DNA from: a virus
Taxonomy: Duplodnaviria > Heunggongvirae > Uroviricota > Caudoviricetes
Reading direction: 5' to 3' (one strand)
Virus record (IMG/VR): IMGVR_UViG_2802429248_000006
Coordinates: 1-26,851 of that record
DNA length: 26,851 nt
Shown: positions 11,382 through 25,725 of the stretch, piece after piece
Layout of the letters: every line of letters begins with the position of its first letter
How positions within the stretch are numbered: position 1 is the first letter of the stretch
Made by a program: the position numbers and the translations under genes
The notes under the pieces: model-generated
The model's input: only the letters and a program-made list of their open reading frames with translations
What the model was told of the DNA's origin: nothing
Database searches by the model: none

Positions 11382-13148
11382 ATGAACACCACACTGACAC
11401 CCGCAGATCTCGATCCCCGTCGGCAGGCCATGCTGCTGTACTTTCAGGGATACCGCGTCGCCCGCATTGCTGAAATGCTGGGCGAGAAAGTTGCAACCGT
11501 TCACAGCTGGAAAAAACGCGACAAGTGGGGTGACTATGGGCCGCTGGATCAGATGCAGCTCACCACCGCCGCACGCTACTGCCAGCTCATTATGAAGGAG
11601 CACAAAGAAGGGAAAGATTTCAAAGAGATTGACCTGCTGGCGCGCCAGTCGGAGCGCCACGCGCGGATCGGCAAGTTTAACAATGGCGGCAACGAAGCCG
11701 ACTTAAACCCTAACGTCGCCAACCGCAACAAAGGCCCACGCCGTCAGCCTGAAAAGAATGTTTTCACCGATGAACAGATTGAGAAGCTGGAAGAAATTTT
11801 CCATTCCTCCATGTTCAACTACCAGCGCCACTGGTGGGAAGCCGGAAAAACCAACCGCATCCGCAACCTGCTGAAGTCACGCCAGATCGGCGCGACCTTC
11901 TATTTTGCCCGTGAAGCCCTGATTGACGCTCTGCTGACCGGACGTAACCAGATTTTCCTTTCCGCAAGCAAGGCACAGGCCCACGTCTTTAAGCAGTACA
12001 TCATCGACTTCGCCAAAGAAGTGGAGGTGGAGCTGAAAGGCGATCCGATGGTGCTTCCTAACGGGGCCACGCTTTACTTCCTCGGCACCAATGCCCGCAC
12101 GGCCCAGAGTTATCACGGCAACCTGTATCTGGATGAATATTTCTGGATACCAAAATTCCAGGAGCTGCGCAAAGTGGCTTCCGGTATGGCTATTCACAAG
12201 AAATGGCGGCAGACCTATTTTTCCACGCCATCCAGCCTGACACACAGTGCTTATCCGTTCTGGTCCGGTGCGCTGTTCAACCGTGGGCGCAACAAAGCCG
12301 ACAAGGTGGACATCGACCTGTCCCACAGCAATCTGGCCCCCGGCCTGCTGTGCGCAGACGGGCAATACCGCCAGATAGTCACCGTGGAGGATGCGGTGCG
12401 CGGCGGCTGTAACCTGTTCGATCTCGACCAGTTGCGCATGGAGTACAGCCCGGACGAATACCAGAACCTGCTGATGTGTGAGTTCGTGGATGATCTCGCG
12501 TCCGTGTTCCCGCTCAGCGAGCTGCAGGCATGCATGGTGGACAGCTGGGAAGTCTGGACCGACTTTCATGCACTGGCCCTGCGCCCATTTGGCTGGCGCG
12601 AAGTGTGGATCGGTTATGACCCGGCTAAAGGTACGCAGAACGGCGACAGCGCCGGATGCGTGGTGGTGGCACCGCCAGCCGTGCCAGGCGGTAAGTTTCG
12701 CATTCTTGAGCGTCACCAGTGGCGCGGGATGGACTTCCGCGCCCAGGCTGACGCCATCAAAAAACTGACCGAACAGTACAACGTGACCTATATCGGTATC
12801 GACTCGACCGGCGTTGGTCACGGGGTTTATGAGAACGTGAAAGCGTTCTTTCCTGCCGTCCGGGAGTTTGTCTACAACCCCACCGTTAAAAACGCCCTGG
12901 TACTCAAGGCCTACGACATTATCAGCCACCGCCGCCTGGAGTTTGACGCCGGACACACCGACATAGCGCAGTCCTTTATGGCAATCCGTCGCGCCACCAC
13001 CGCCAGTGGCAACCGCCCGACCTATGAAGCCAGCCGCAGCGAAGAAGCCAGTCACGCCGATCTGGCCTGGGCAACGATGCATGCACTGTTTAATGAACCG
13101 CTGCAGGGCGAGTCCGCCAATACCAGCAATATTGTGGAGATTTTTTGA
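11382..13148 (+). CDS. P: Terminase large (ATPase) subunit P
   Basis: 588-aa ORF, divergent from O; P2 P-like size and position. Confidence 0.9.
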   Translation: MNTTLTPADLDPRRQAMLLYFQGYRVARIAEMLGEKVATVHSWKKRDKWGDYGPLDQMQLTTAARYCQLIMKEHKEGKDFKEIDLLARQSERHARIGKFNNGGNEADLNPNVANRNKGPRRQPEKNVFTDEQIEKLEEIFHSSMFNYQRHWWEAGKTNRIRNLLKSRQIGATFYFAREALIDALLTGRNQIFLSASKAQAHVFKQYIIDFAKEVEVELKGDPMVLPNGATLYFLGTNARTAQSYHGNLYLDEYFWIPKFQELRKVASGMAIHKKWRQTYFSTPSSLTHSAYPFWSGALFNRGRNKADKVDIDLSHSNLAPGLLCADGQYRQIVTVEDAVRGGCNLFDLDQLRMEYSPDEYQNLLMCEFVDDLASVFPLSELQACMVDSWEVWTDFHALALRPFGWREVWIGYDPAKGTQNGDSAGCVVVAPPAVPGGKFRILERHQWRGMDFRAQADAIKKLTEQYNVTYIGIDSTGVGHGVYENVKAFFPAVREFVYNPTVKNALVLKAYDIISHRRLEFDAGHTDIAQSFMAIRRATTASGNRPTYEASRSEEASHADLAWATMHALFNEPLQGESANTSNIVEIF

Positions 13149-14176
13149 TGGGAAAGAGTAAGAAAAACCGCACTGCGGCGACGAATCAGATCCAGCATAA
13201 AAACCAAACTTCAGCCGAAGCATTCAGCTTCGGCGATCCCGTTCCTGTTCTGGACCGCCGAGAATTACTGGACTATGTGGAATGCGTACAGATGGACCGT
13301 TGGTATGAGCCGCCCGTCAGCTTTGACGGACTGGCGCGCACCTTCCGCGCTGCCGTGCATCACAGTTCCCCGATTGCAGTAAAGTGCAACATTCTGACCA
13401 GTACCTATATCCCTCATCCTCTGCTCAGCCAGCAGGCTTTTTCGCGTTTTGTGCAGGACTATCTGGTATTTGGCAACGCCTATCTGGAGAAACGCACGAA
13501 CCGCTTCGGTGAAGTGATCGCCCTTGAACCTGCGCTGGCAAAATACACCCGACGCGGATTAGACCTGGATACCTACTGGTTTGTGCAATACGGTATGACA
13601 ACCCAGCCGTATCAGTTCACGAAAGGCAGTATTTTTCATCTGATGGAACCGGACATCAACCAGGAGATCTACGGCCTGCCCGGTTATCTTTCTGCCATTC
13701 CGTCAGCCCTGCTCAACGAGTCCGCCACGTTGTTCCGCCGTAAGTATTACATCAACGGCAGCCATGCAGGCTTCATCATGTACATGACCGATGCCGCGCA
13801 GAATCAGGAGGACGTGAACAACCTCCGCAACGCGATGAAAAGCGCCAAAGGACCGGGTAACTTCCGCAACCTGTTTATGTACTCGCCTAACGGCAAAAAG
13901 GACGGGCTTCAGATTATCCCGTTGTCAGAGGTCGCGGCGAAGGATGAGTTTCTGAATATCAAAAATGTCAGCCGCGATGACATGATGGCTGCGCACCGCG
14001 TGCCGCCGCAAATGATGGGGATTATGCCTAATAATGTTGGGGGGTTTGGGGATGCGGAGAAAGCTAGCCGGGTATTTGTTCGCAACGAATTAATTCCTCT
14101 CCAGAAGAGACTGCAGGAACTGAATGAATGGCTAGATGATGAAGTCATAACCTTTAAAAGGTATAGTCTCGATTAA
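13145..14176 (+). CDS. Q: Portal protein Q
   Basis: 343-aa ORF overlapping the P stop; P2 Q-like; the final ~50 codons drop in GC. Confidence 0.9.
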   Translation: MMGKSKKNRTAATNQIQHKNQTSAEAFSFGDPVPVLDRRELLDYVECVQMDRWYEPPVSFDGLARTFRAAVHHSSPIAVKCNILTSTYIPHPLLSQQAFSRFVQDYLVFGNAYLEKRTNRFGEVIALEPALAKYTRRGLDLDTYWFVQYGMTTQPYQFTKGSIFHLMEPDINQEIYGLPGYLSAIPSALLNESATLFRRKYYINGSHAGFIMYMTDAAQNQEDVNNLRNAMKSAKGPGNFRNLFMYSPNGKKDGLQIIPLSEVAAKDEFLNIKNVSRDDMMAAHRVPPQMMGIMPNNVGGFGDAEKASRVFVRNELIPLQKRLQELNEWLDDEVITFKRYSLD

Positions 14177-14184
14177 ACTAAAAT

Positions 14185-14209
14185 AATGGCTGGCGAAGGT
14201 CCAGCCATT
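14185..14209. terminator. Hairpin between convergent Q and the cargo gene (bidirectional terminator candidate)
   Basis: AATGGCTGG-cgaaggt-CCAGCCATT: 9-bp stem, 7-nt loop, A/T flanks, in the 38-bp gap between two convergent stop codons. Confidence 0.5.
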
Positions 14210-14214
14210 AAATG

Positions 14215-15318
14215 TTAATCTTGCTCAGGCTCATAACGTGGTTCAATACTGCCAAAATTAACATATTTAATAACCGACGTTAACTCTATATCCTCAGCGT
14301 CCATATTATCATAATTCCTATCGAAATCATTAAATATGGTAAAGATCACACTGGTAGTATCATCAACTTCTGTAAACTCCGTTGTAGCAGCCAAGTAAAC
14401 ATTATCTTTATCTATAGAATCGTAATGATAAAAATTAAATTCACACTCAGCATTATATGTTACTGTGACTTTAATCTCAAAAGTCGCATAATCTTGACTA
14501 ACATCTATAACATTAATAGAAGGTTCAAACTCAACGTCTGATACATAACAATAGTTAGCCTCCGGCTCAAAACTAAGGTAGGAATCAGCCTCTGCCATAA
14601 AACTCACATCATCATAACGGCTAATAACTACACTTCTAATAGAGTCCAATAGGGTAATAGATTTTCCAGCCTCTATATCGAGCATTAAACGCTGAGCAAA
14701 CTCATATGGAGCTGTTCTAGGTTGAAAGTGCGTTAATGCTTCGCCTAAATCCTGAATGCAGGTTACATAATCTGAACCACTACAGTATTCAATCCATCCC
14801 TGGTCTCTTGAAATTGCTATTATTTTTTTATGAGATTTTTTAGCATAAGCCTCAATTGCAAATAGAACTGTTGCATCTGGAAACTCCTCCTTCCTTTTCT
14901 TTCTATCAGCGAAGGGCGGAGTTAAATTAAAATAAGCATCAAATACTTCATCAAGTGTTGTATAGTCACTACACTTAATTTCAACCGCACCACATTTTTT
15001 CAAATATTCTTCTATCCTTGAAGAGGCCAACGCATCAGAACTGACCATTTGTATAGAGTTTTCAAAAATAGATTCAGTCTCTTTGCTGGTTAGCAAAGAA
15101 TGTATCAGTGCATCTTTAAGAGATTTATCCAGTGCATCTTGTGATTCTTTAATTTTTTTTGATAGATGACTTTGCACTTCATTTTTCACGATGTCAGGCA
15201 TAAGAAAATCCACTTGGCTATGACAAAACTGCTTCATCCGTGCAAGCATACCTTCGTTAAAACGCCAGTGATAATTATCAATAGTTTGTGTATCTAAAAC
15301 TATAGCATCGTATGACAC
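14215..15318 (-). CDS. Hypothetical cargo protein, 367 aa; N-terminal PIN-like nuclease-type fold suspected, C-terminal acidic beta-rich domain of unknown function
   Basis: Long intact ORF with GTG start and an AAGGAG Shine-Dalgarno; visibly AT-rich against the GC-rich flanks; N-terminus AIVLDTQTI plus later acidic residues (E47, PDATVL, SRDQGW) resemble a PIN-like pattern. Confidence 0.6.
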   Translation of the reverse strand: MSYDAIVLDTQTIDNYHWRFNEGMLARMKQFCHSQVDFLMPDIVKNEVQSHLSKKIKESQDALDKSLKDALIHSLLTSKETESIFENSIQMVSSDALASSRIEEYLKKCGAVEIKCSDYTTLDEVFDAYFNLTPPFADRKKRKEEFPDATVLFAIEAYAKKSHKKIIAISRDQGWIEYCSGSDYVTCIQDLGEALTHFQPRTAPYEFAQRLMLDIEAGKSITLLDSIRSVVISRYDDVSFMAEADSYLSFEPEANYCYVSDVEFEPSINVIDVSQDYATFEIKVTVTYNAECEFNFYHYDSIDKDNVYLAATTEFTEVDDTTSVIFTIFNDFDRNYDNMDAEDIELTSVIKYVNFGSIEPRYEPEQD

Positions 15319-15435
15319 AAGCTCGCTCCTTCTTCTTTAATGCACAACAGAGTGTTCTACAAAATCATCTAAGATGAAAGTTGTAAACCTAACCGTCTAT
15401 GTCTGCAAGTTTTCTTTTTTTCCTCTCAGCGCGCG

Positions 15436-15454
15436 CTCGTATCCCCGCCACGCC
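15436..15454 (-). other. Putative cos (cohesive-end) site
   Basis: Minus strand reads GGCGTGGCGGGGATACGAG; the first 13 nt match my recollection of the 186/P2 cos 19-mer; lies between the A side and the Q side as expected. Confidence 0.4.
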
Positions 15455-15495
15455 TGCCCGCTTTATGTAGTGGTTTTCATGCACCTGCATGATCT

Positions 15496-15523
15496 ACGCA
15501 AAAGCCCGCCAGTTCTGGCGGGC
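15496..15523 (-). terminator. Rho-independent terminator for the minus-strand SOS/early transcript
   Basis: GC-rich stem GCCCGCCAG/CTGGCGGGC followed on the minus strand by a short T-tract (TTTTGCG). Confidence 0.5.
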
Positions 15524-15658
15524 CTTAGCAAAAACGATCCTCAAACGATCATGCGATCTCATGCGGCATAGACATGCACTACAGAGCTAACGCCTCGCAA
15601 GGGCTGGTTGTTCAACCTTGCTGACGCCAGAAGCAAGTTCAGACGCCAGCAACGTTTC

Positions 15659-15891
15659 TTAATGCAGCCAGCTGTCGTCTTCCCACACCTTCTGCATAAT
15701 TTTCATCACTTGTTTTCTTTCTTCGTCCAGTTGCAGTCCGGTTAGTTCCACACCGTTAGAGCTACCTTTGCGAATGCGAATTACCGTTTTGGATACAGGG
15801 GGCGCAGATTGCGGTAAAGCTCGGATTCAAGGGCGTCCAGGGTAGACTGGCTAATCTTCTGCTCTTTATCGATCATTATTTCAATGCGCAT
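15659..15891 (-). pseudogene. dinI: DinI-like gene interrupted by a 1-nt frameshift in an A4 run
   Basis: N-terminal 29 aa MRIEIMIDKEQKISQSTLDALESELYRNL resemble DinI; reading stops after RPLYPKR, but the -1 frame continues ...VIRIRKGSSNGVELTGLQLDEERKQVMKIMQKVWEDDSWLH, matching the DinI C-terminus; shift point is the A-run at ~15787-15790. Confidence 0.65.
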
Positions 15892-16243: not shown

Positions 16244-18685
16244 TTAATACAGGTTCCGCCACTTATCATCTTCCCGCAAACGCTGGTTCCGATAGAAGAT
16301 ACGCAAGCCTGCTCCTGACGGAATACTGCCGCCGCGAAGGAGTAAATCGACCTCTTTCTCGCTACCATCAAATCCTCTGGACTTCAGCTCATAGACGAGC
16401 TGCTGTCGCTGATGATCTGTAATTCGCTGTTTGTAGTCTTTACGCCGTTTCGGTTTCACCAGGCGTAACCTTGCTGCCAGTTCCCGGCGCTCTTTTTTGC
16501 TCATACTGTGCAGATAATCGTGCAACTCCTTGTCATCCATGCGGGTAATATCCGTTCTGGTGTCCCCATCAGCTGATTTATCTTTCTCCTGTTGGTTCAA
16601 ATTTTCAGCAAGGGGACAGTTATTGCCACGAGTCCAAGGGGCGCAAGCGCCCTGGTCGGCTGCCGCCTCCTGAACGTCAACGGCCTTACGAACCATTTTC
16701 CACTTCACGGCATGAGTGCAGATCTTGCCCTCTGCAATGGGTGACCAGATGCCATAAATACGAATGCCGTGATCGCCATAGGCGGTCGGCTCTTCGTTAA
16801 TTTCATAAGCGGTTCTGATGAGGTGATATTTGCGGGGAACCAGTACGCCGCCCTGCTTCATGATGTAGGTGGCAAAACAACCAGCATCAGCAGCAGCCAG
16901 GATGGCATCAAGGCGCGGGTTATCCAGTACCGGCGCACCTGCTTTTTTGTCGCCCTGTTGCCTTGCCGCCTGACCAGCCAGCAATCGCAGTTCACGGTAA
17001 GCCTGACGCCCCGGAATGCCAAAGAAGCGGAATTGCTGAACACGATGCAGAGACGCCCAGGCATTAACGTATTCAGCGTTATCACGCAGGGATTTACCCG
17101 TTTCCTTGCTGATCTCGCCAGCCAGACCACGCCCGTCAATGTTCTTACTGATGTATTTCGCGATGTAGCTTGTTGGCGTACCTTTGCGCGGGTTTATCAG
17201 CTCAGACTTAAAGCGTGGTCCCGTGTTATTACCCAGCTCCTCGCGGTCTTCACGAATGGCAAACTTACGCAACAAAGCAGTAATGGCGCGGCGATCTTTT
17301 TTGCGCATAAAACACAACAGGTGCCAGTGAACTGTACCGTCATGATGCGGCTCAGCCACCCGCACGCCATACCAGCGCAATCCGGCTTTGTGCATCGCCT
17401 TACGAAATGCAGCAAACATGCCGACCAGATAATCACTGCTTTGTCTTACCGTCGCATTTGTCCAGGTCGGGTTGGGCCTGCCGTTATTTAGCGTGGAATG
17501 GAAACGTGACGGACAGGTGATGGTGTAGAAAACGGCGCAGTCACTGCGCATTTCCGCGATAAGCTCCAGACCTTTAACACAGGCCATCATCTCATTGCGG
17601 CGATGCGCCGGGTTGCTGCTGCTGGCGTTTACCACATCTTCCATATCCAGCGTGTCGCCGTTTTCGTTCACCAGTTCATGAGAACGGAAAAACTCCAGCG
17701 ACTTACGGCGCTGCTCACGTTTATGCATCACGGCTTCATAGCTGACATAGGGAGATGCTTTTTTGCTGACCAGGCAGACAGCACGCAACTGCTCTTCCCG
17801 CCATTCGCAGCGCATCTTCCATAATTTCCGATACCACCAGTCGGCACACAACATACGCGCCAGCGAACCCGGAATGAGTTCATAGGGCACGGGTTTGCGA
17901 CGCTTTCTTTTCCGACGAAGTTGCTCAAACGCAGGCGGGATAACATCCAGTCGCAGGGTTTCCGCTGCCACCTTTTCCCATGTCTTGCGGATTTCTTCTG
18001 GCTTAACATCATCGGTGGCGTACAAATCACCACAAGCGGCATCAAGGCACATGCTCATATGCGCAGCTACCAGGGTGGACAGGCGTTTCACCTGATCCTG
18101 ACTCATTTCAGGCAGGATCAGCAGGCCGTCCAGCCCTTCATGGCTCGCCATAAAGCGAAAAGAAGTGGATAGCTGACTGTCGCGTACATGCTCCAGCCGT
18201 TCCAGACATGGCTTAATCGTCTCACGCAAATAGCGGGAATAAGCCTTTGGCCTGCCCAGGCTGCTGAAGTATTCAATACGTTGCATCAGCGGCTTGCTGA
18301 TATGGGAAGGCTGGGCGTTAACGTCCGCCAGAATGACCATGTCCGGATTAAAACGCTGCTGCTCATGCGCCAGCTTTGCCCGGCTAATGAGCTTATCCTG
18401 CTCCATTTCGCGTTGGACAGGATCACGGGATTCATTAAAGAAATAACGCTCCCAGACCTGATCACTCAGTGCCTCGCGGCGCACTTGTTCCTGCTCGTTA
18501 TCGGCAGCGTACAGAGTGATCAGGTTTGAAAGCGCAGAAACCGGCGCAACTTCCGCCGGGTCCAGATAAGGGTTAATGGCTTTCTTAGGTAAATTCCACG
18601 AATAACCCCCGGCAGAATTCTCAATGCTACCGGAAGTTACACTGACAAATGGATCGGCAAGACGGCCTGTGCTGATCTCTGTCAC
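16244..18685 (-). CDS. A: Replication initiation protein A (rolling-circle HUH endonuclease)
   Basis: 813-aa ORF with P2 A-type motifs ([25 protein letters not shown]); GTG start overlaps the upstream stop (GTGA). Confidence 0.9.
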
Positions 18686-19692
18686 TCACAGACTCCTGCA
18701 TATACACTGCTGCACACCGCTTTATCATTCATGCCTGCCAGCAGGTCAAACTGCATACCGCCCCGAGTCGTTAAGGCCCAGTCCCGATAAGTTTCAATGC
18801 CATAAGCATCAACAGTTATGACTTCGATCCGTTTTTCATCACGGCGCGGATCATGCGTGGATGGAAAGAACGTTGAATTGCCACGTCTTGAACATTCCGC
18901 AACCAGTCTTTCCCACTCAGCCACTCGGCGGATTTCTTCTGGCCAGCGTTGGAAAATCTCAGCAAGTTCTGACTTGCGAGCATGAATACATGGCATACAA
19001 CCGACACGACTGCATCCCTGCATATAAAGGGGGTTAGGCTTAATGCCATGACGTTTGGCAATAGCAAACACATCCTCATGCAGCCAATTAAGGATCGGAC
19101 GATAAACATGCAGGCCCAGAGTATTGTCTGCATCGTCCTCCCACTCAGGCAACAATGCACGTTCCGGTGATTCCTGCCCCCGGACTCCTTGCCAGCTGAT
19201 TACCTCATCGTATTCATCCAGAGCCGGATCGATTACCTGTGTACGTATTGGTTCATGTTTCAGTTCAAAAGTGCAGAAACGAGCTTTTGTTGAAGGGAAG
19301 CGACCTTTCCACATGCACAAATCAAGAAACGGAACGCCGGTTGGTTTAAGGATTTCCAGTGCCCGGTAAATACGTTCCTCAGCCTCATCTGTCGACATAC
19401 CACATTCCTCAACGAGAGAAATGGGCCACTTTTCCGCAATGAATTTACGTTTCCCTTCTATCTGGCGTGTGAAATCCGCTTTGACGCGAATAATCTTGCC
19501 CAGCTTTGATTCCAGATAATCCAGATATTCTATTGTCTGTGGATGTTCATGACCCGTATCGGCAAATACAGAAATATGCGGAACATCGTTTTCAATGGCT
19601 CTTAACCATTGAGCGAGACTATCTTTGCCACCAGAAGTAGTGATGATGTTAATGGTGCTTGAGGCAAAGCAACGCGGATCGATAGCATTCAT
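18682..19692 (-). CDS. PAPS-reductase / DndC-like PP-loop ATP pyrophosphatase family protein
   Basis: 336-aa ORF with PP-loop motif (TSGGKDS) and a C-terminal cysteine cluster (CSRVGCMPC); ATG overlaps the Dam stop (ATGA). Confidence 0.75.
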
Positions 19693-20537
19693 GCGCGTAC
19701 CTCAACGGTACGGTCAGAGCCGCTGGCAAAATCGACACCAAACCACCCAGCTGATTTGGTGGCAATGATTTCTGTTGCAGATTTACTCTCGCCAGCTGAC
19801 ACGCCAATGCTGCGTTTTGACTTGATGTAGTGGTGAGTGAAATTGCGATACAGCGAACGGATCAGGGATGTGTCACTGTTAGAAACAATGACCGGATGAC
19901 CTTCAGATGATCGATGTTCAAGAACGGATGCCAGGTGATACTGGTCATCTTCAGTGAAGCCATCAGTGTGATAGCCGGAAAACGTACCGTCATAAGGCGG
20001 ATCGCAATACACCACATCCCCCACCTTCAACATCGCCAGCGTTTCATCAAAGCTGGCGCAGATAAACGTTGCCTGCTGGGCTTTCTCTGCAAATGCGCGA
20101 ATTTCTTTTTCAGGGAAATACGGATTTTTATAATTACCGTAGGGAATGTTGAAATACCCGCTCTTGTTATAGCGACATAACCCACGGTAACCATGACGAT
20201 TGAGATACAGAAAATATACCGCTTTTATGAAATCAGTAATTTCAGTGGAGTAATTAAACTCCTGCCTTATGTTGTAATAAGCCACCTCCCTGTTTGCTTC
20301 CTCAAATAAAGCTCTGGCACGAGATATAAACGCCTCACAATCAGCAGCAACCTTTTTATAGAGGTTGATTAAATCAGGATTAATATCCGCAACAAGATAG
20401 CTGGGGTAATCCGTCTCCATCATCACTGCACAGGAACCCGCGAAAGGTTCAACCAGTCGCGGGCCAGCAGGAAGATGCTTTTTCAGTTCGGACATTATGG
20501 CGGTTTTATTTCCCGCCCATTTCAGGATAGTGCTCAT
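19689..20537 (-). CDS. dam: DNA N6-adenine methyltransferase (Dam-like)
   Basis: ORF 19689..20597 trimmed to the ATG ([11 protein letters not shown]) behind a GGAGGTG Shine-Dalgarno; motif I (FAGSCAV) and motif IV (DPPY). Confidence 0.85.
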
Positions 20538-22973: not shown

Positions 22974-23912
22974 ATGTCAACTCAAAAAATCACATTTCGC
23001 CATATTGAAGATAGTCTGAAAGCTATGGTCATGCAGAATCGTGGAGGGCAAAAAGTCATTGAGAGGATACTCAAGGCCTATGGTTTCAAATCACGCCAAG
23101 CCTTCTGTAAGCATCTTGGTATTTCACAAAGCACAATGGCTAATAGATATGCACGCGATACCTTCCCTGCTGATTGGGTTGTTATATGTTCAATGGAAAC
23201 TGGCGCATCCCTAGAATGGCTGGCCTTTGGTTCTAACAATGCAGAAGAAAGTTTCCCCCCTTATGTGGAACAACATGATGAAACAGTCCCACATGAGGGG
23301 TTTAACAGCAACGCTCATCAATCATCCTTTAAGCGCCGCATTGAGAATCACATTGAGCTTACTAACGGAGGAAAAGCCGCGATAGAGAGGATTGTTAATG
23401 CTTACGGGTTTAAAACCCGCCAAGCCTTAGCCGACCACCTTGGTATTTCAAAAAGCACATTAGCCACACGATACATGCGAGATTCTTTCCCTGCGGATTG
23501 GGTGATTAAATGCGCATTAGAAACCAAAGCGGATCTCGCCTGGCTAGTTACAGGAATCGAAACACCAAATAGTTCACAAGAAGAAAACACTGTAATTTTA
23601 AATAAGTTCAATTTAGTCAATGGCGTGCTTGTCGAGTCAGGTTTTTTATCCATGGATCGGTGTCTACTTCCGAAGCAAGAAACTAGCAGCTTGATGTTTG
23701 TAAGCAATGGAGAAAAACATGTCATATGTGATAAAGAATTTCACCTAATTAGAGATGGAAAATGGTTAGTAGGAATTGACAATGAGTTATCTTTAAAAGA
23801 GTTAACTCGTTTACCTAAGAACAAAATTCTTGTTTCTGGTGGGAGTAAGGATTTTGAGTGTTCCATTGAGGATATTCAAATTATAGCCAGCATTATCTTA
23901 ACAATACAATAA
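22974..23912 (+). CDS. cI: CI-like immunity repressor with two tandem N-terminal HTH domains
   Basis: 312-aa ORF; residues ~27-95 and ~130-200 are clear paralogous copies (ERILKAYGFKSRQAF...FPADWVVICSMETGASLEWL vs ERIVNAYGFKTRQAL...FPADWVIKCALETKADLAWL), resembling the 186 CI N-terminal domain as I recall it. Confidence 0.7.
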   Translation: MSTQKITFRHIEDSLKAMVMQNRGGQKVIERILKAYGFKSRQAFCKHLGISQSTMANRYARDTFPADWVVICSMETGASLEWLAFGSNNAEESFPPYVEQHDETVPHEGFNSNAHQSSFKRRIENHIELTNGGKAAIERIVNAYGFKTRQALADHLGISKSTLATRYMRDSFPADWVIKCALETKADLAWLVTGIETPNSSQEENTVILNKFNLVNGVLVESGFLSMDRCLLPKQETSSLMFVSNGEKHVICDKEFHLIRDGKWLVGIDNELSLKELTRLPKNKILVSGGSKDFECSIEDIQIIASIILTIQ

Positions 23913-23955: not shown

Positions 23956-25725
23956 ATGAATCATCATCTTTCAAAGATTTCTATAAAAAACTTTAGATCT
24001 TGCAAAGATATTGATATCAATTTTTCTTCATTCACGCCTTTAATCGGTTACAACAATGCTGGTAAGTCAACGATTTTAAATGCTATTGAATGGCTTTTTA
24101 AGAAAAAACTTTTGTCCTCTGATGATTATACTAATCCAGATAACCCTATAGAAGTTATAGGTACAGTTAAGGGTATTACTGAAGATATTTTGTCAGCTTT
24201 AACAGAAGAAAACAGAACTAGAATTTCACCCTACATTATTGATGGGGTATTGATATTTAAGCGTCAACAGCCTGTTGGTGCTCAAAGTGCAAAAGACGTC
24301 AGATTATTAATTAAAAACCCAGAAAATAACGAATTCAGGACATCACCAACGGGTATTGAGAATGCGATAAAAGCTTTATTTCCAGACCCAATACGTATAG
24401 GTGCAATGGAAAATGCAGCGGATGATTCTTCAAAATCAAAAACAGGAACTACAATAGGTAAGTTGCTGGCAGAATTGAGTTGCAAAATAGAAGAGAAGCA
24501 CACTCAAAGGATACTAAGCCATTTAAATGCCGTTAATAGAAGAATGACTGCAACCGGTAATAAACGAATATCGGACCTCAATGATATTGATGATTCAATA
24601 AGTAGTAAAGTTGCTGATTTCTTCCCTGGGATAAGTTTAAAACTACACTTCGAACTCCCTGACTTCAAGGATATATTTAAATCAGGGACTGTAAAAGTAT
24701 ATGAAGATTCATTTCCCGGCATTGCTCGTGACTGTTCTTCTTATGGTCATGGCACACAGCGTTCGATTCAGATGGCTCTAATAAGACATTTAGCTGATAT
24801 AACCAACGGTGATGATATTAAAACAACTACTCTACTGTTAATAGATGAACCTGAGTTATATCTTCACCCATTTGCTATCGAACAAATTAGAGAATCTCTA
24901 AAAACACTATCTCATCATGGATATCAAATAATTTTCTCTACCCATTCATCTCAAATGATTACCTCTGACTTAGCAAAAGACACTGTGTTAATCAGAAAAA
25001 ACAGTCAGCGTGGCACTCATTGCAGATTAACATTAAAAGAAGCAGTCAATAAAGTAATCGAACAACGACCAGCACAAGCAACCCATTTATTTTCATTAAC
25101 ACAGTCTTCAAAAGTTTTGTTTGCTAACAATGTAATACTAACAGAAGGTAAAACAGAGACTACTCTGCTCCCATTTATTTTTAACAAAGTTAAAAATAAA
25201 ACATTAGGTCAGATGCAAATAGCACTAATTGAAACAGGGTCCGTTGAAAGTATATCTAAAACGATGCAAATTCTAAATTCAATGGATATACCTACAAAAG
25301 CAATTGTTGATTTAGATTTTGCGTTCCGCGGTGCAATAAGGAACAACTTCTTAGAACATAATGACGAGGATATTTTACGACTAAAAGAAATCTTGAGAAG
25401 TATGCATGCTAATGGAGAATGCACTCTCGATGGATCCGGTTTGCCTACAAAGGGTAGTAACACTACCGCAGCTGAAGCATTTGCTATTATGTCTCAAAAG
25501 CCCGGCGCCAGAGAATTTTTGTCATCATTAGCCGCAAAACTGAGAAATGCAAATATTTGGATTTGGCTAAATGGTTCGATAGAAAACCATTTGGGTCTTA
25601 CAGAAAAAAATGAATCAGTATGGGCTGATTTCAAAACAAAAGCAGATACACAACCTCTTTCAGATATCTGTGCAGATTTCGAAAGTATTGAGGCTTTAGT
25701 CGACTGGATTACCCCTGACGTATGA
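23956..25725 (+). CDS. old: OLD-family ABC-ATPase / TOPRIM nuclease (P2 Old-like, class 1)
   Basis: 589-aa ORF with Walker A (GYNNAGKST), Walker B (LLLIDEPELYLHP), TOPRIM-type glutamate (VILTEGKTE) and DxD (VDLDFA); GGAGGAG Shine-Dalgarno; AT-rich. Confidence 0.85.
   Translation: MNHHLSKISIKNFRSCKDIDINFSSFTPLIGYNNAGKSTILNAIEWLFKKKLLSSDDYTNPDNPIEVIGTVKGITEDILSALTEENRTRISPYIIDGVLIFKRQQPVGAQSAKDVRLLIKNPENNEFRTSPTGIENAIKALFPDPIRIGAMENAADDSSKSKTGTTIGKLLAELSCKIEEKHTQRILSHLNAVNRRMTATGNKRISDLNDIDDSISSKVADFFPGISLKLHFELPDFKDIFKSGTVKVYEDSFPGIARDCSSYGHGTQRSIQMALIRHLADITNGDDIKTTTLLLIDEPELYLHPFAIEQIRESLKTLSHHGYQIIFSTHSSQMITSDLAKDTVLIRKNSQRGTHCRLTLKEAVNKVIEQRPAQATHLFSLTQSSKVLFANNVILTEGKTETTLLPFIFNKVKNKTLGQMQIALIETGSVESISKTMQILNSMDIPTKAIVDLDFAFRGAIRNNFLEHNDEDILRLKEILRSMHANGECTLDGSGLPTKGSNTTAAEAFAIMSQKPGAREFLSSLAAKLRNANIWIWLNGSIENHLGLTEKNESVWADFKTKADTQPLSDICADFESIEALVDWITPDV

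Follow-up and report, generated by a model that had tools for sequence, protein, structure and literature searches.

A mobile PIN_12/DUF4935 gene beside cos in a 186-type P2-like prophage is a candidate single-gene anti-phage defence

The window analysed here is the whole 26,851-nucleotide (nt) stretch of IMG/VR virus record IMGVR_UViG_2802429248_000006 (positions 1 to 26,851), from a virus of the Caudoviricetes. Between its portal gene Q and its cos site lies a gene for a 367-amino-acid (aa) protein of the PIN_12/DUF4935 family, referred to below as the PIN gene. Its sequence, neighbourhood and relatives identify it as an intact, horizontally acquired, mobile single-gene cassette in the portal-proximal slot of a 186-type P2-like prophage, and the PIN gene probably acts there as a stand-alone anti-phage gene that protects the host. 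Inspection of the window gives the gene order P, Q, PIN gene, cos, DinI-like gene, hypothetical gene and A. The listing of open reading frames (ORFs) places the PIN gene convergent with Q, with its start codon ~100 bp from cos, and the GTG start is supported by orthologues, which have ATG at the same codon. The protein is annotated in two E. coli genomes as WP_206832834.1, a ‘PIN domain-containing protein’. Sliding GC content is 0.34-0.37 over the PIN ORF versus 0.53-0.60 in the upstream structural genes. Gene by gene, GC and third-position GC (GC3) are 0.351 and 0.264 for the PIN gene, 0.515 and 0.622 for Q, and 0.569 and 0.706 for P. The composition of the PIN gene is clearly foreign.

Comparison with related phages defines the segment in which the PIN gene sits. 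P2-like phages that lack the gene (L011, L012 and L013) are homologous to the window as far as 14103-14150 and again from 15429, ~7 bp short of the cohesive-end sequence, such that the left junction of the Q-side slot falls inside the last codons of Q and the right junction abuts cos. The cohesive-end sequence GGCGTGGCGGGGATACGAG, read on the minus strand from 15454 to 15436, shares 15 of 19 positions, the first 13 included, with the cohesive end of 186, GGCGTGGCGGGGAAAGCAT, and the block around it is the sole part of the query matched by 1,282 E. coli records. Judged by these alignments, the putative cos is real and 186-like. According to its record, P2 carries cosL at 1-19, the terminator tQ at 160-181 and Q at 187-1221, and 186 is arranged alike. 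The distance from the cohesive end to the portal stop codon is ~170 bp in P2 and 186, where it holds only tQ or tW, as compared with ~1,260 bp in the window.

The hairpin between the two convergent genes is 5 nt away from the PIN stop codon and 8 nt away from that of Q. Its folding z-score is -5.1, and none of 200 shuffled sequences folds equally well. Because the stem is followed on the minus strand by the T-rich tract TTTTAGTTTA, the hairpin is the predicted terminator of the PIN gene; P2 and 186 have their tQ/tW terminators at the same position. An earlier note on this DNA had described an AT-rich 367-aa cargo ORF with a GTG start and an AAGGAG Shine-Dalgarno sequence, bracketed by a hairpin and a putative cos at a place where P2 has no gene. 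That description stands. The ORF and its start signals are as it gave them, on the minus strand (which it left unstated), and both the sliding GC and the gene GC and GC3 values set the ORF apart from the flanking structural genes. The 10-bp stem and its z-score confirm the hairpin, the match to 186 confirms cos, and the P2 record lacks a gene between portal and cos, as does that of 186. The status of cargo is borne out by the foreign composition together with slot content that differs between homologous P2-like phages.

Inspection of orthologous loci reveals how the cassette moves. Among 5,426 complete E. coli genomes, 2 have the exact PIN gene, both at this position and in prophages (L001 and L002) that are near-identical to the window (96-99%). 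Orthologues of 74% (Citrobacter) and 48% identity occupy the same Q-side slot with different neighbours across cos, and they supply the recurrence at the Q-cos junction with varying neighbours for which the earlier note had proposed to look. The 48% relative was considered as a possible E. coli lineage and set aside, having no match in complete E. coli genomes. On a metagenome contig, a lambdoid prophage carries a 79% orthologue between the lambda-type replication gene P and the nin region (L003 7844-9483). The flanks that it shares with the window comprise 342 bp of the Q 3′ end, the hairpin and the cos block, the last lacking 59 bp (window 15448-15506), among them part of the cohesive-end sequence. 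Since a Q 3′ fragment and a cos remnant accompany this orthologue, they are direct evidence that the cassette passed from a P2-like phage into a lambdoid phage. A tblastn search of 50,697 phage records returned no match to the window lineage, which is absent from sequenced phage isolates. Five of five orthologues are intact 367-codon ORFs. In pairwise comparisons of orthologues, the ratio of non-synonymous to synonymous divergence (dN/dS) is 0.13-0.17 for the whole gene at a synonymous divergence (dS) of ~1, 0.09-0.19 for the PIN half and 0.15-0.22 for the C-terminal half, values that indicate purifying selection in both halves. Table 1 gives the positions of the features.

Table 1. Features of the PIN locus, in coordinates of the window
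Feature	Position	Strand	Remarks
Coding sequence, 367-aa stand-alone PIN_12/DUF4935 protein	14215..15318	minus	GTG start; stop codon 14215-14217; from ORF listing, Pfam, dN/dS
Shine-Dalgarno AAGGAG	15326..15331	minus	7 nt before GTG at 15318; read from sequence
PIN nuclease half, residues 1-200	14719..15318	minus	long helical insert at residues ~42-110
Catalytic codons (predicted)	D9 15292-15294; E47 15178-15180; D148 14875-14877; D172 14803-14805	minus	
Family-specific C-terminal half, residues 201-367	14218..14718	minus	two helices, then long-stranded antiparallel beta sheet
Hairpin, GC-rich, 10-bp stem	14184..14210		between convergent stops of Q (14176) and PIN gene (14215); terminator scan, folding
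Portal gene Q, flanking core gene	13145..14176	plus	ORF; ‘phage portal protein’ in near-identical prophages
Portal-proximal (Q-side) cargo slot	14150..15428		unrelated genes replace the segment in otherwise homologous P2-like phages
Conserved cos block, ~150 bp	15427..15579		alignments; P2 and 186 cos read from records
Second cargo slot junction, A side of cos	15579..15587		position of old and tin in P2; empty in window

The N-terminal half of the protein was identified by Pfam as PIN_12 (PF16289, formerly DUF4935), which matches residues 6-175 over the whole model (1-172 of 172) with 106.6 bits against a cut-off of 32 (E 2.4e-30). Only four close clusters of the window protein were found in a database of 5.8 billion clusters. 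An exhaustive profile search extended the family to 2,511 representatives at E<=1e-3, 510 of them at E<=1e-30, and the best 150 of the 2,511 matches align end to end (residues 1 to ~365) with proteins of 348-450 aa, mostly ~350-390. Among 67 sequences of 25-35% identity, D148 and D172 never vary, and D9 and E47 are conserved in at least 90%; all four are invariant in a set of 19 sequences, and the family signature PPF...KK.EFPDA is also conserved. An AlphaFold2 (AF2) model built from the 19-sequence alignment has a mean predicted local distance difference test score (pLDDT) of 90.5 and a predicted template modelling score (pTM) of 0.82, and replaced a model from 5 close sequences only (pLDDT 67). 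A fold search with the model found a PIN alpha/beta/alpha fold with RNases as structural neighbours. Solved structures yielded no sequence match to either the single protein or the family profile. Among predicted viral structures, the only significant match was a full-length family member from a metagenomic siphovirus. Taken together, these data describe the N-terminal half as a VapC-like PIN nuclease that is predicted to be catalytically competent.

The C-terminal half is specific to the family, with no relative in Pfam or the PDB and no convincing structural or sequence relative elsewhere in the searches. Its conserved motifs are EADS (243-246), DSIDKD (300-305) and FG (355-356). Pairwise identity across the family is 25% in this half versus 37% in the PIN half, and its net charge is -26 in the window protein, averages -27 over ~170 residues in the family and is -10 or lower in 98% of members. 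That the acidic charge is kept despite divergent sequence fits a functional polyanionic surface on the C-terminal domain (C-domain). The earlier note had read a PIN-like pattern in the N-terminal half and an acidic, beta-rich and unrecognised C-terminal half. The first reading agrees with the PIN_12 match and the four conserved acidic residues, and the nuclease fold that it proposed to look for is present in the model. Of the second, acidic and beta-rich hold by charge and model, but ‘unrecognised’ does not: this is the conserved C-terminal half of the DUF4935 family.

DUF4935 was described by Matelska et al. 2017 (PMC5499597) as an N-terminal PIN domain followed by an alpha/beta C-terminal region without known homologue, usually monocistronic, and was classed in the VapC-like group and not the FEN group. 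The family as described there has 4-5 conserved acidic residues, a long helical insert and a length of ~350-390 aa, all of which the window protein shares end to end. By sequence and model it is thus a member of the full-length PIN_12/DUF4935 clade and structurally no different from it. What is new for the family is its context, in a prophage hotspot and in defence islands, together with the family-wide polyanionic C-domain and the motifs within it. In one family lineage, the A-run that encodes the conserved motif GKKKNEFPDA has lost 1 nt (A7, with A8 needed to restore the frame), and the gene is split as a result (L024 4534-5642; L025 986-2094). The break falls just before catalytic E/D residues, and four clusters of 213-215-aa products share a start point (P0172, P0173, P0175 and P0177). 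The deletion could be a homopolymer sequencing error or a slippage-based on/off switch. A natural division into toxin and antitoxin genes was considered and rejected, as this frameshift inside the PIN domain is the only split found.

The interval between genes A and Q is a published P2 defence hotspot, gpA-gpQ (Rousset 2022, PMC9122126; Vassallo 2022), and the PIN gene belongs to it: the core genes on either side are A (replication) and Q (portal), and the segment that holds the gene differs from one related prophage to the next. Resolved at the level of cos, this hotspot is two cargo slots that flank the conserved ~150-bp cos block, and the portal-side slot mostly exchanges single genes. The Q-side slot was surveyed in a sample of 60 of 1,293 matching E. 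coli records and in phage records. Its content elsewhere is SieB, TIGR02391/Hypoth_Ymh, DUF4145 (three records), TIR, an S1 peptidase, a STAS-like protein, hypothetical proteins, other ‘PIN domain-containing’ proteins, or nothing. On the A side of cos, a 1.25-kb stretch with two genes (280 aa and 71 aa) is present in the near-identical E. coli prophages L001 and L002, a Citrobacter prophage (L004) carries a pair of 387 aa and 178 aa, and the prophage of the 48%-identity relative (L005) carries DNA_methylase and HATPase_c_3 genes.

Distant family members were inspected in their own neighbourhoods. An Aliivibrio member lies with TIR proteins and HigBA in a cassette-like array, a Rhodocyclus member has an integrase fragment and DUF4917 nearby, and a Burkholderia member sits at a prophage end with FRG and AAA_15+DUF4276 (PARIS-like domains). 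Another has an Mrr-type endonuclease and a recombinase nearby, and another DUF4145 and a Schlafen-like protein. A further member follows a Gabija pair, beginning 15 bp past the end of the GajB-like helicase gene in the same orientation and downstream of a Type I HsdR gene (L015 2399-7095; L016 724-5420), and may be co-transcribed with Gabija. Across ~10 independent contexts, family members had no conserved partner or antitoxin, which accords with the single-gene description in the earlier note.

Further ORFs of the window deserve mention. A 65-aa ORF across the cos block (15374-15571, plus strand) is probably spurious, since conservation of the region is at the DNA level and annotations of P2-like prophages show no gene of this kind. 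The DinI-like gene (15659-15891, minus strand) is frameshifted, with codons 1-35 (MRIEIMIDK...LYPK) and the last 42 codons (TVIRIRKG...SWLH) in different frames; in L001 it is intact at 77 aa, and the frameshift in the window may reflect either a true pseudogene or an error in sequencing. A PAPS-reductase domain is encoded by a 336-aa ORF (18682-19692, minus strand) that lies between the replication gene A and a Dam methylase gene, and the segment around it, 18583-19762, is absent from L001 and L002, which are otherwise 96-99% identical; this marks another variable cargo position. An AT-rich (GC ~0.35) 589-aa ORF (23956-25725, plus strand) with AAA_15/AAA_21 and an OLD-like TOPRIM domain is flanked by the genes for the CI repressor (22974-23912) and the integrase (from 25799 to the end of the window). 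It is a predicted OLD-family nuclease with the architecture of P2 Old, in the cI-int position and not beside cos.

To interpret the cassette, its neighbourhood was considered together with experimentally characterised PIN systems. The closest of these is DS-5 (DefensePredictor, PMC13092281; WP_021513008 and WP_021513009), a validated two-protein system that protects the host; the PIN mutants D7A and E44A of its DS-5B protein lose defence, and DS-5A (DUF5830 plus an AcrIF4-like domain) is required for defence, yet is no antitoxin (PMC13092281). DS-3 (DefensePredictor, WP_022645725; PMC13092281) is a one-protein PIN defence without antitoxin in which the catalytic residues are essential, and its authors propose autoinhibition until infection. 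On sequence and analogy we judge the PIN gene to be, by a narrow measure, probably a stand-alone anti-phage gene that protects its host. Support for this reading is stronger than before because the Q-side slot carries SieB, TIR, DUF4145 and TIGR02391 cargo, because restriction-modification, Gabija and PARIS-like genes neighbour distant members, and because DS-5 is validated. If the gene does defend, we consider it likely by analogy that the protein is an autoinhibited RNase, kept in check by its own C-terminal half until infection unleashes it, leading to an abortive-type block. We infer that a lysogen would express the protein and that, without an antitoxin gene, the C-terminal half would keep the nuclease inactive until infection by another phage released or activated the PIN site. 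The active site would then cut RNA (tRNA, rRNA or mRNA, as VapC-type PINs do) and stop phage production. Autoinhibition is suggested because there is no antitoxin, because DS-3 offers a precedent and because the negative charge of the C-domain is conserved.

Several observations weigh against defence, or against this way of achieving it. A consensus scan found no sigma-70 promoter between cos and the PIN start codon from which a lysogen might express the gene; TTTACA at 15387-15382 is conserved among PIN-carrying loci, with no convincing -10 element to pair. A profile search with the C-domain only returned PIN_12 proteins and fragments and no other effectors, leaving the idea of a modular sensor carried by different effectors unsupported, and the C-domain dN/dS of 0.15-0.22 is not elevated and gives no sign of the diversifying selection that might mark a sensor, a candidate signature that was likewise set aside. 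Both results weaken the autoinhibition model. Scans of the window protein with PADLOC (including its HEC models), NCBIfam and PHROGs gave no match, and hotspots also contain non-defence cargo such as partition systems and toxins. DS-5B aligns to the window family in the PIN half only (residues 6-202, hhalign probability 95.4%, ~21% identity); its C-terminal half is different and does not align to that of the window protein. A tblastn search for DS-5A in the window and related loci gave a best E of 0.037, in unrelated loci only, and homology of the window family to DS-3 is not detectable (hhalign probability 0.4%). The literature searched reports no experiment on the window protein or on any stand-alone full-length DUF4935 member, and nothing about the family appears in Kieffer 2024, Darracq 2024 or Liu 2026.

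Other roles for the gene must be weighed against host defence. The nuclease might serve the phage itself, either in counter-defence or to attack competitors; it might, for instance, degrade host immune RNAs or target P4 satellites or other P2-like phages in the course of lytic growth or superinfection. Prophage hotspots mix defence with anti-defence cargo, the gene comes first at the left end of the packaged genome, beside cos, and would enter a new cell early, and a siphovirus carries a full-length family member. We nevertheless regard a role of this kind as unlikely, given that distant members also occur in chromosomal islands beside restriction-modification, Gabija and PARIS-like genes, that the gene is convergent with the late operon and has its own terminator, like lysogenic-conversion genes, and that DS-5, the validated PIN_12 relative, is host-protective. 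A role in phage DNA metabolism (recombination, cos processing or packaging), as a DNA- or structure-specific nuclease and not an RNase effector, would suit a gene directly beside cos, and the PIN-like superfamily does include FEN-type DNA nucleases (PMC5499597). P2, 186 and most P2-like phages, however, package normally without a gene here, the lambdoid prophage carries the same gene out of context next to a deleted cos remnant, and the family belongs to the VapC-like group, not the FEN group, with RNases as structural neighbours, so that this role is very improbable.

A fused toxin-antitoxin or addiction module could stabilise the prophage or spread selfishly with no anti-phage role at all. 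The VapC-like PIN is the classic fold of type II toxins, the acidic C-terminal half could act in cis as the acidic tail of VapB does in the absence of a separate antitoxin, and the gene is highly mobile between elements. A covalently fused and equally stable ‘antitoxin’, on the other hand, cannot give post-segregational killing; the C-domain-only search never found the domain as a separate conserved gene, the sole split version does not break at the domain boundary, and modules resembling toxin-antitoxin systems in such hotspots have repeatedly proved to be defence systems. We consider addiction improbable on these grounds. The GTG start, the lack of a detected promoter, the rarity of the gene in complete E. 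coli genomes and the frameshift in the neighbouring DinI-like gene might further suggest a decaying, non-functional remnant of foreign DNA. To this we give next to no credence: the intact orthologues, the retention of all catalytic residues and the confident AF2 model speak against decay, and the dN/dS values have effectively refuted it.

A role in host defence would carry consequences beyond this locus. If the gene is protective, a role would be at hand for DUF4935, listed as ‘function unknown’ since 2017 and comprising ~2,500 cluster representatives in Proteobacteria and beyond, and a compact 1.1-kb single-gene PIN system would join the defence catalogue. A polyanionic C-domain fused to a toxin-type RNase without antitoxin would also offer a tractable model for silencing and infection sensing in single-chain effectors. 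A bolder and quite doubtful extension is that full-length DUF4935 proteins form a widespread family of self-contained immune sensor-effectors (at least 500 clusters at 50% identity), in which the polyanionic beta-domain would be a nucleic-acid mimic that masks the PIN site in cis and serves as bait for phage DNA- or RNA-binding proteins, whose binding would unleash the RNase. For annotation, both the window gene and a sister lineage present in 36 of the 5,426 E. coli genomes go unrecognised by PADLOC. The earlier note had proposed a candidate for an undescribed anti-phage system. Defence remains plausible in view of the slot, the neighbours and DS-5, but ‘undescribed’ does not survive: the Pfam family was described in 2017, the hotspot is in the literature, its PIN_12 cargo has been on record since 2022, and a PIN_12 system that probably occupies the same slot has been validated.

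Comparison with these known systems places the window gene among several PIN_12 lineages. Table S5 of Rousset et al. 2022 (PMC9122126) lists PIN_12 proteins in the gpA-gpQ hotspot. Two of them, WP_000920989 and WP_000920990, are stand-alone, lie in the Q-cos slot in the same orientation as the window gene, and form the sister lineage, which is separate from that of the window and commoner. They are 27.6% identical to the window protein over the full length (family-profile E 3e-44), with C-domain charges of -29 and -30. They are catalogued in PMC9122126, and no test of them was found in the literature. A third PIN_12 entry in the table, WP_021513009, is DS-5B, and because of the gene order given there DS-5 is probably in the same Q-side slot, next to Q of a P2-like prophage. 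DS-5B resembles the window protein in outline, with PIN_12 at residues 4-174 of 376 aa and an acidic C-terminal half (-17), and its D7 and E44 are equivalent to D9 and E47; by BLASTP the two share 29% identity over 69 aa (E 3e-4). A DS-5B-like PIN_12 protein, WP_100756028, which is 39% identical to DS-5B over its full length, stands alone in the Q-side slot of E. coli EC6563 (NZ_CP095856.1; L021 2214-3359), where only 395 bp including cos lie upstream, without room for a DS-5A-like partner.

The remaining systems differ from the window gene in architecture. DS-3 has part of its PIN domain at the N terminus and part at the C terminus, whereas that of the window protein is contiguous and N-terminal. 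VapBC loci have a VapB-type antitoxin gene; at the window locus there is no ORF between the start codon and cos, and the neighbour on the other side is the convergent Q. The window protein is ~2.7x the size of VapC, with the helical insert and the fused acidic domain, and in every context examined its family is monocistronic. HEC-03 (Payne et al. 2024), a validated defence composed of a PIN protein and an ABC ATPase, needs the ATPase; none adjoins the window PIN gene, and no PADLOC model matched it. A fused ‘decoy-guard’ logic, in which an acidic domain of the same chain would act as both mask and bait, would thus differ from DS-3, DS-5, HEC-03 and VapBC alike.

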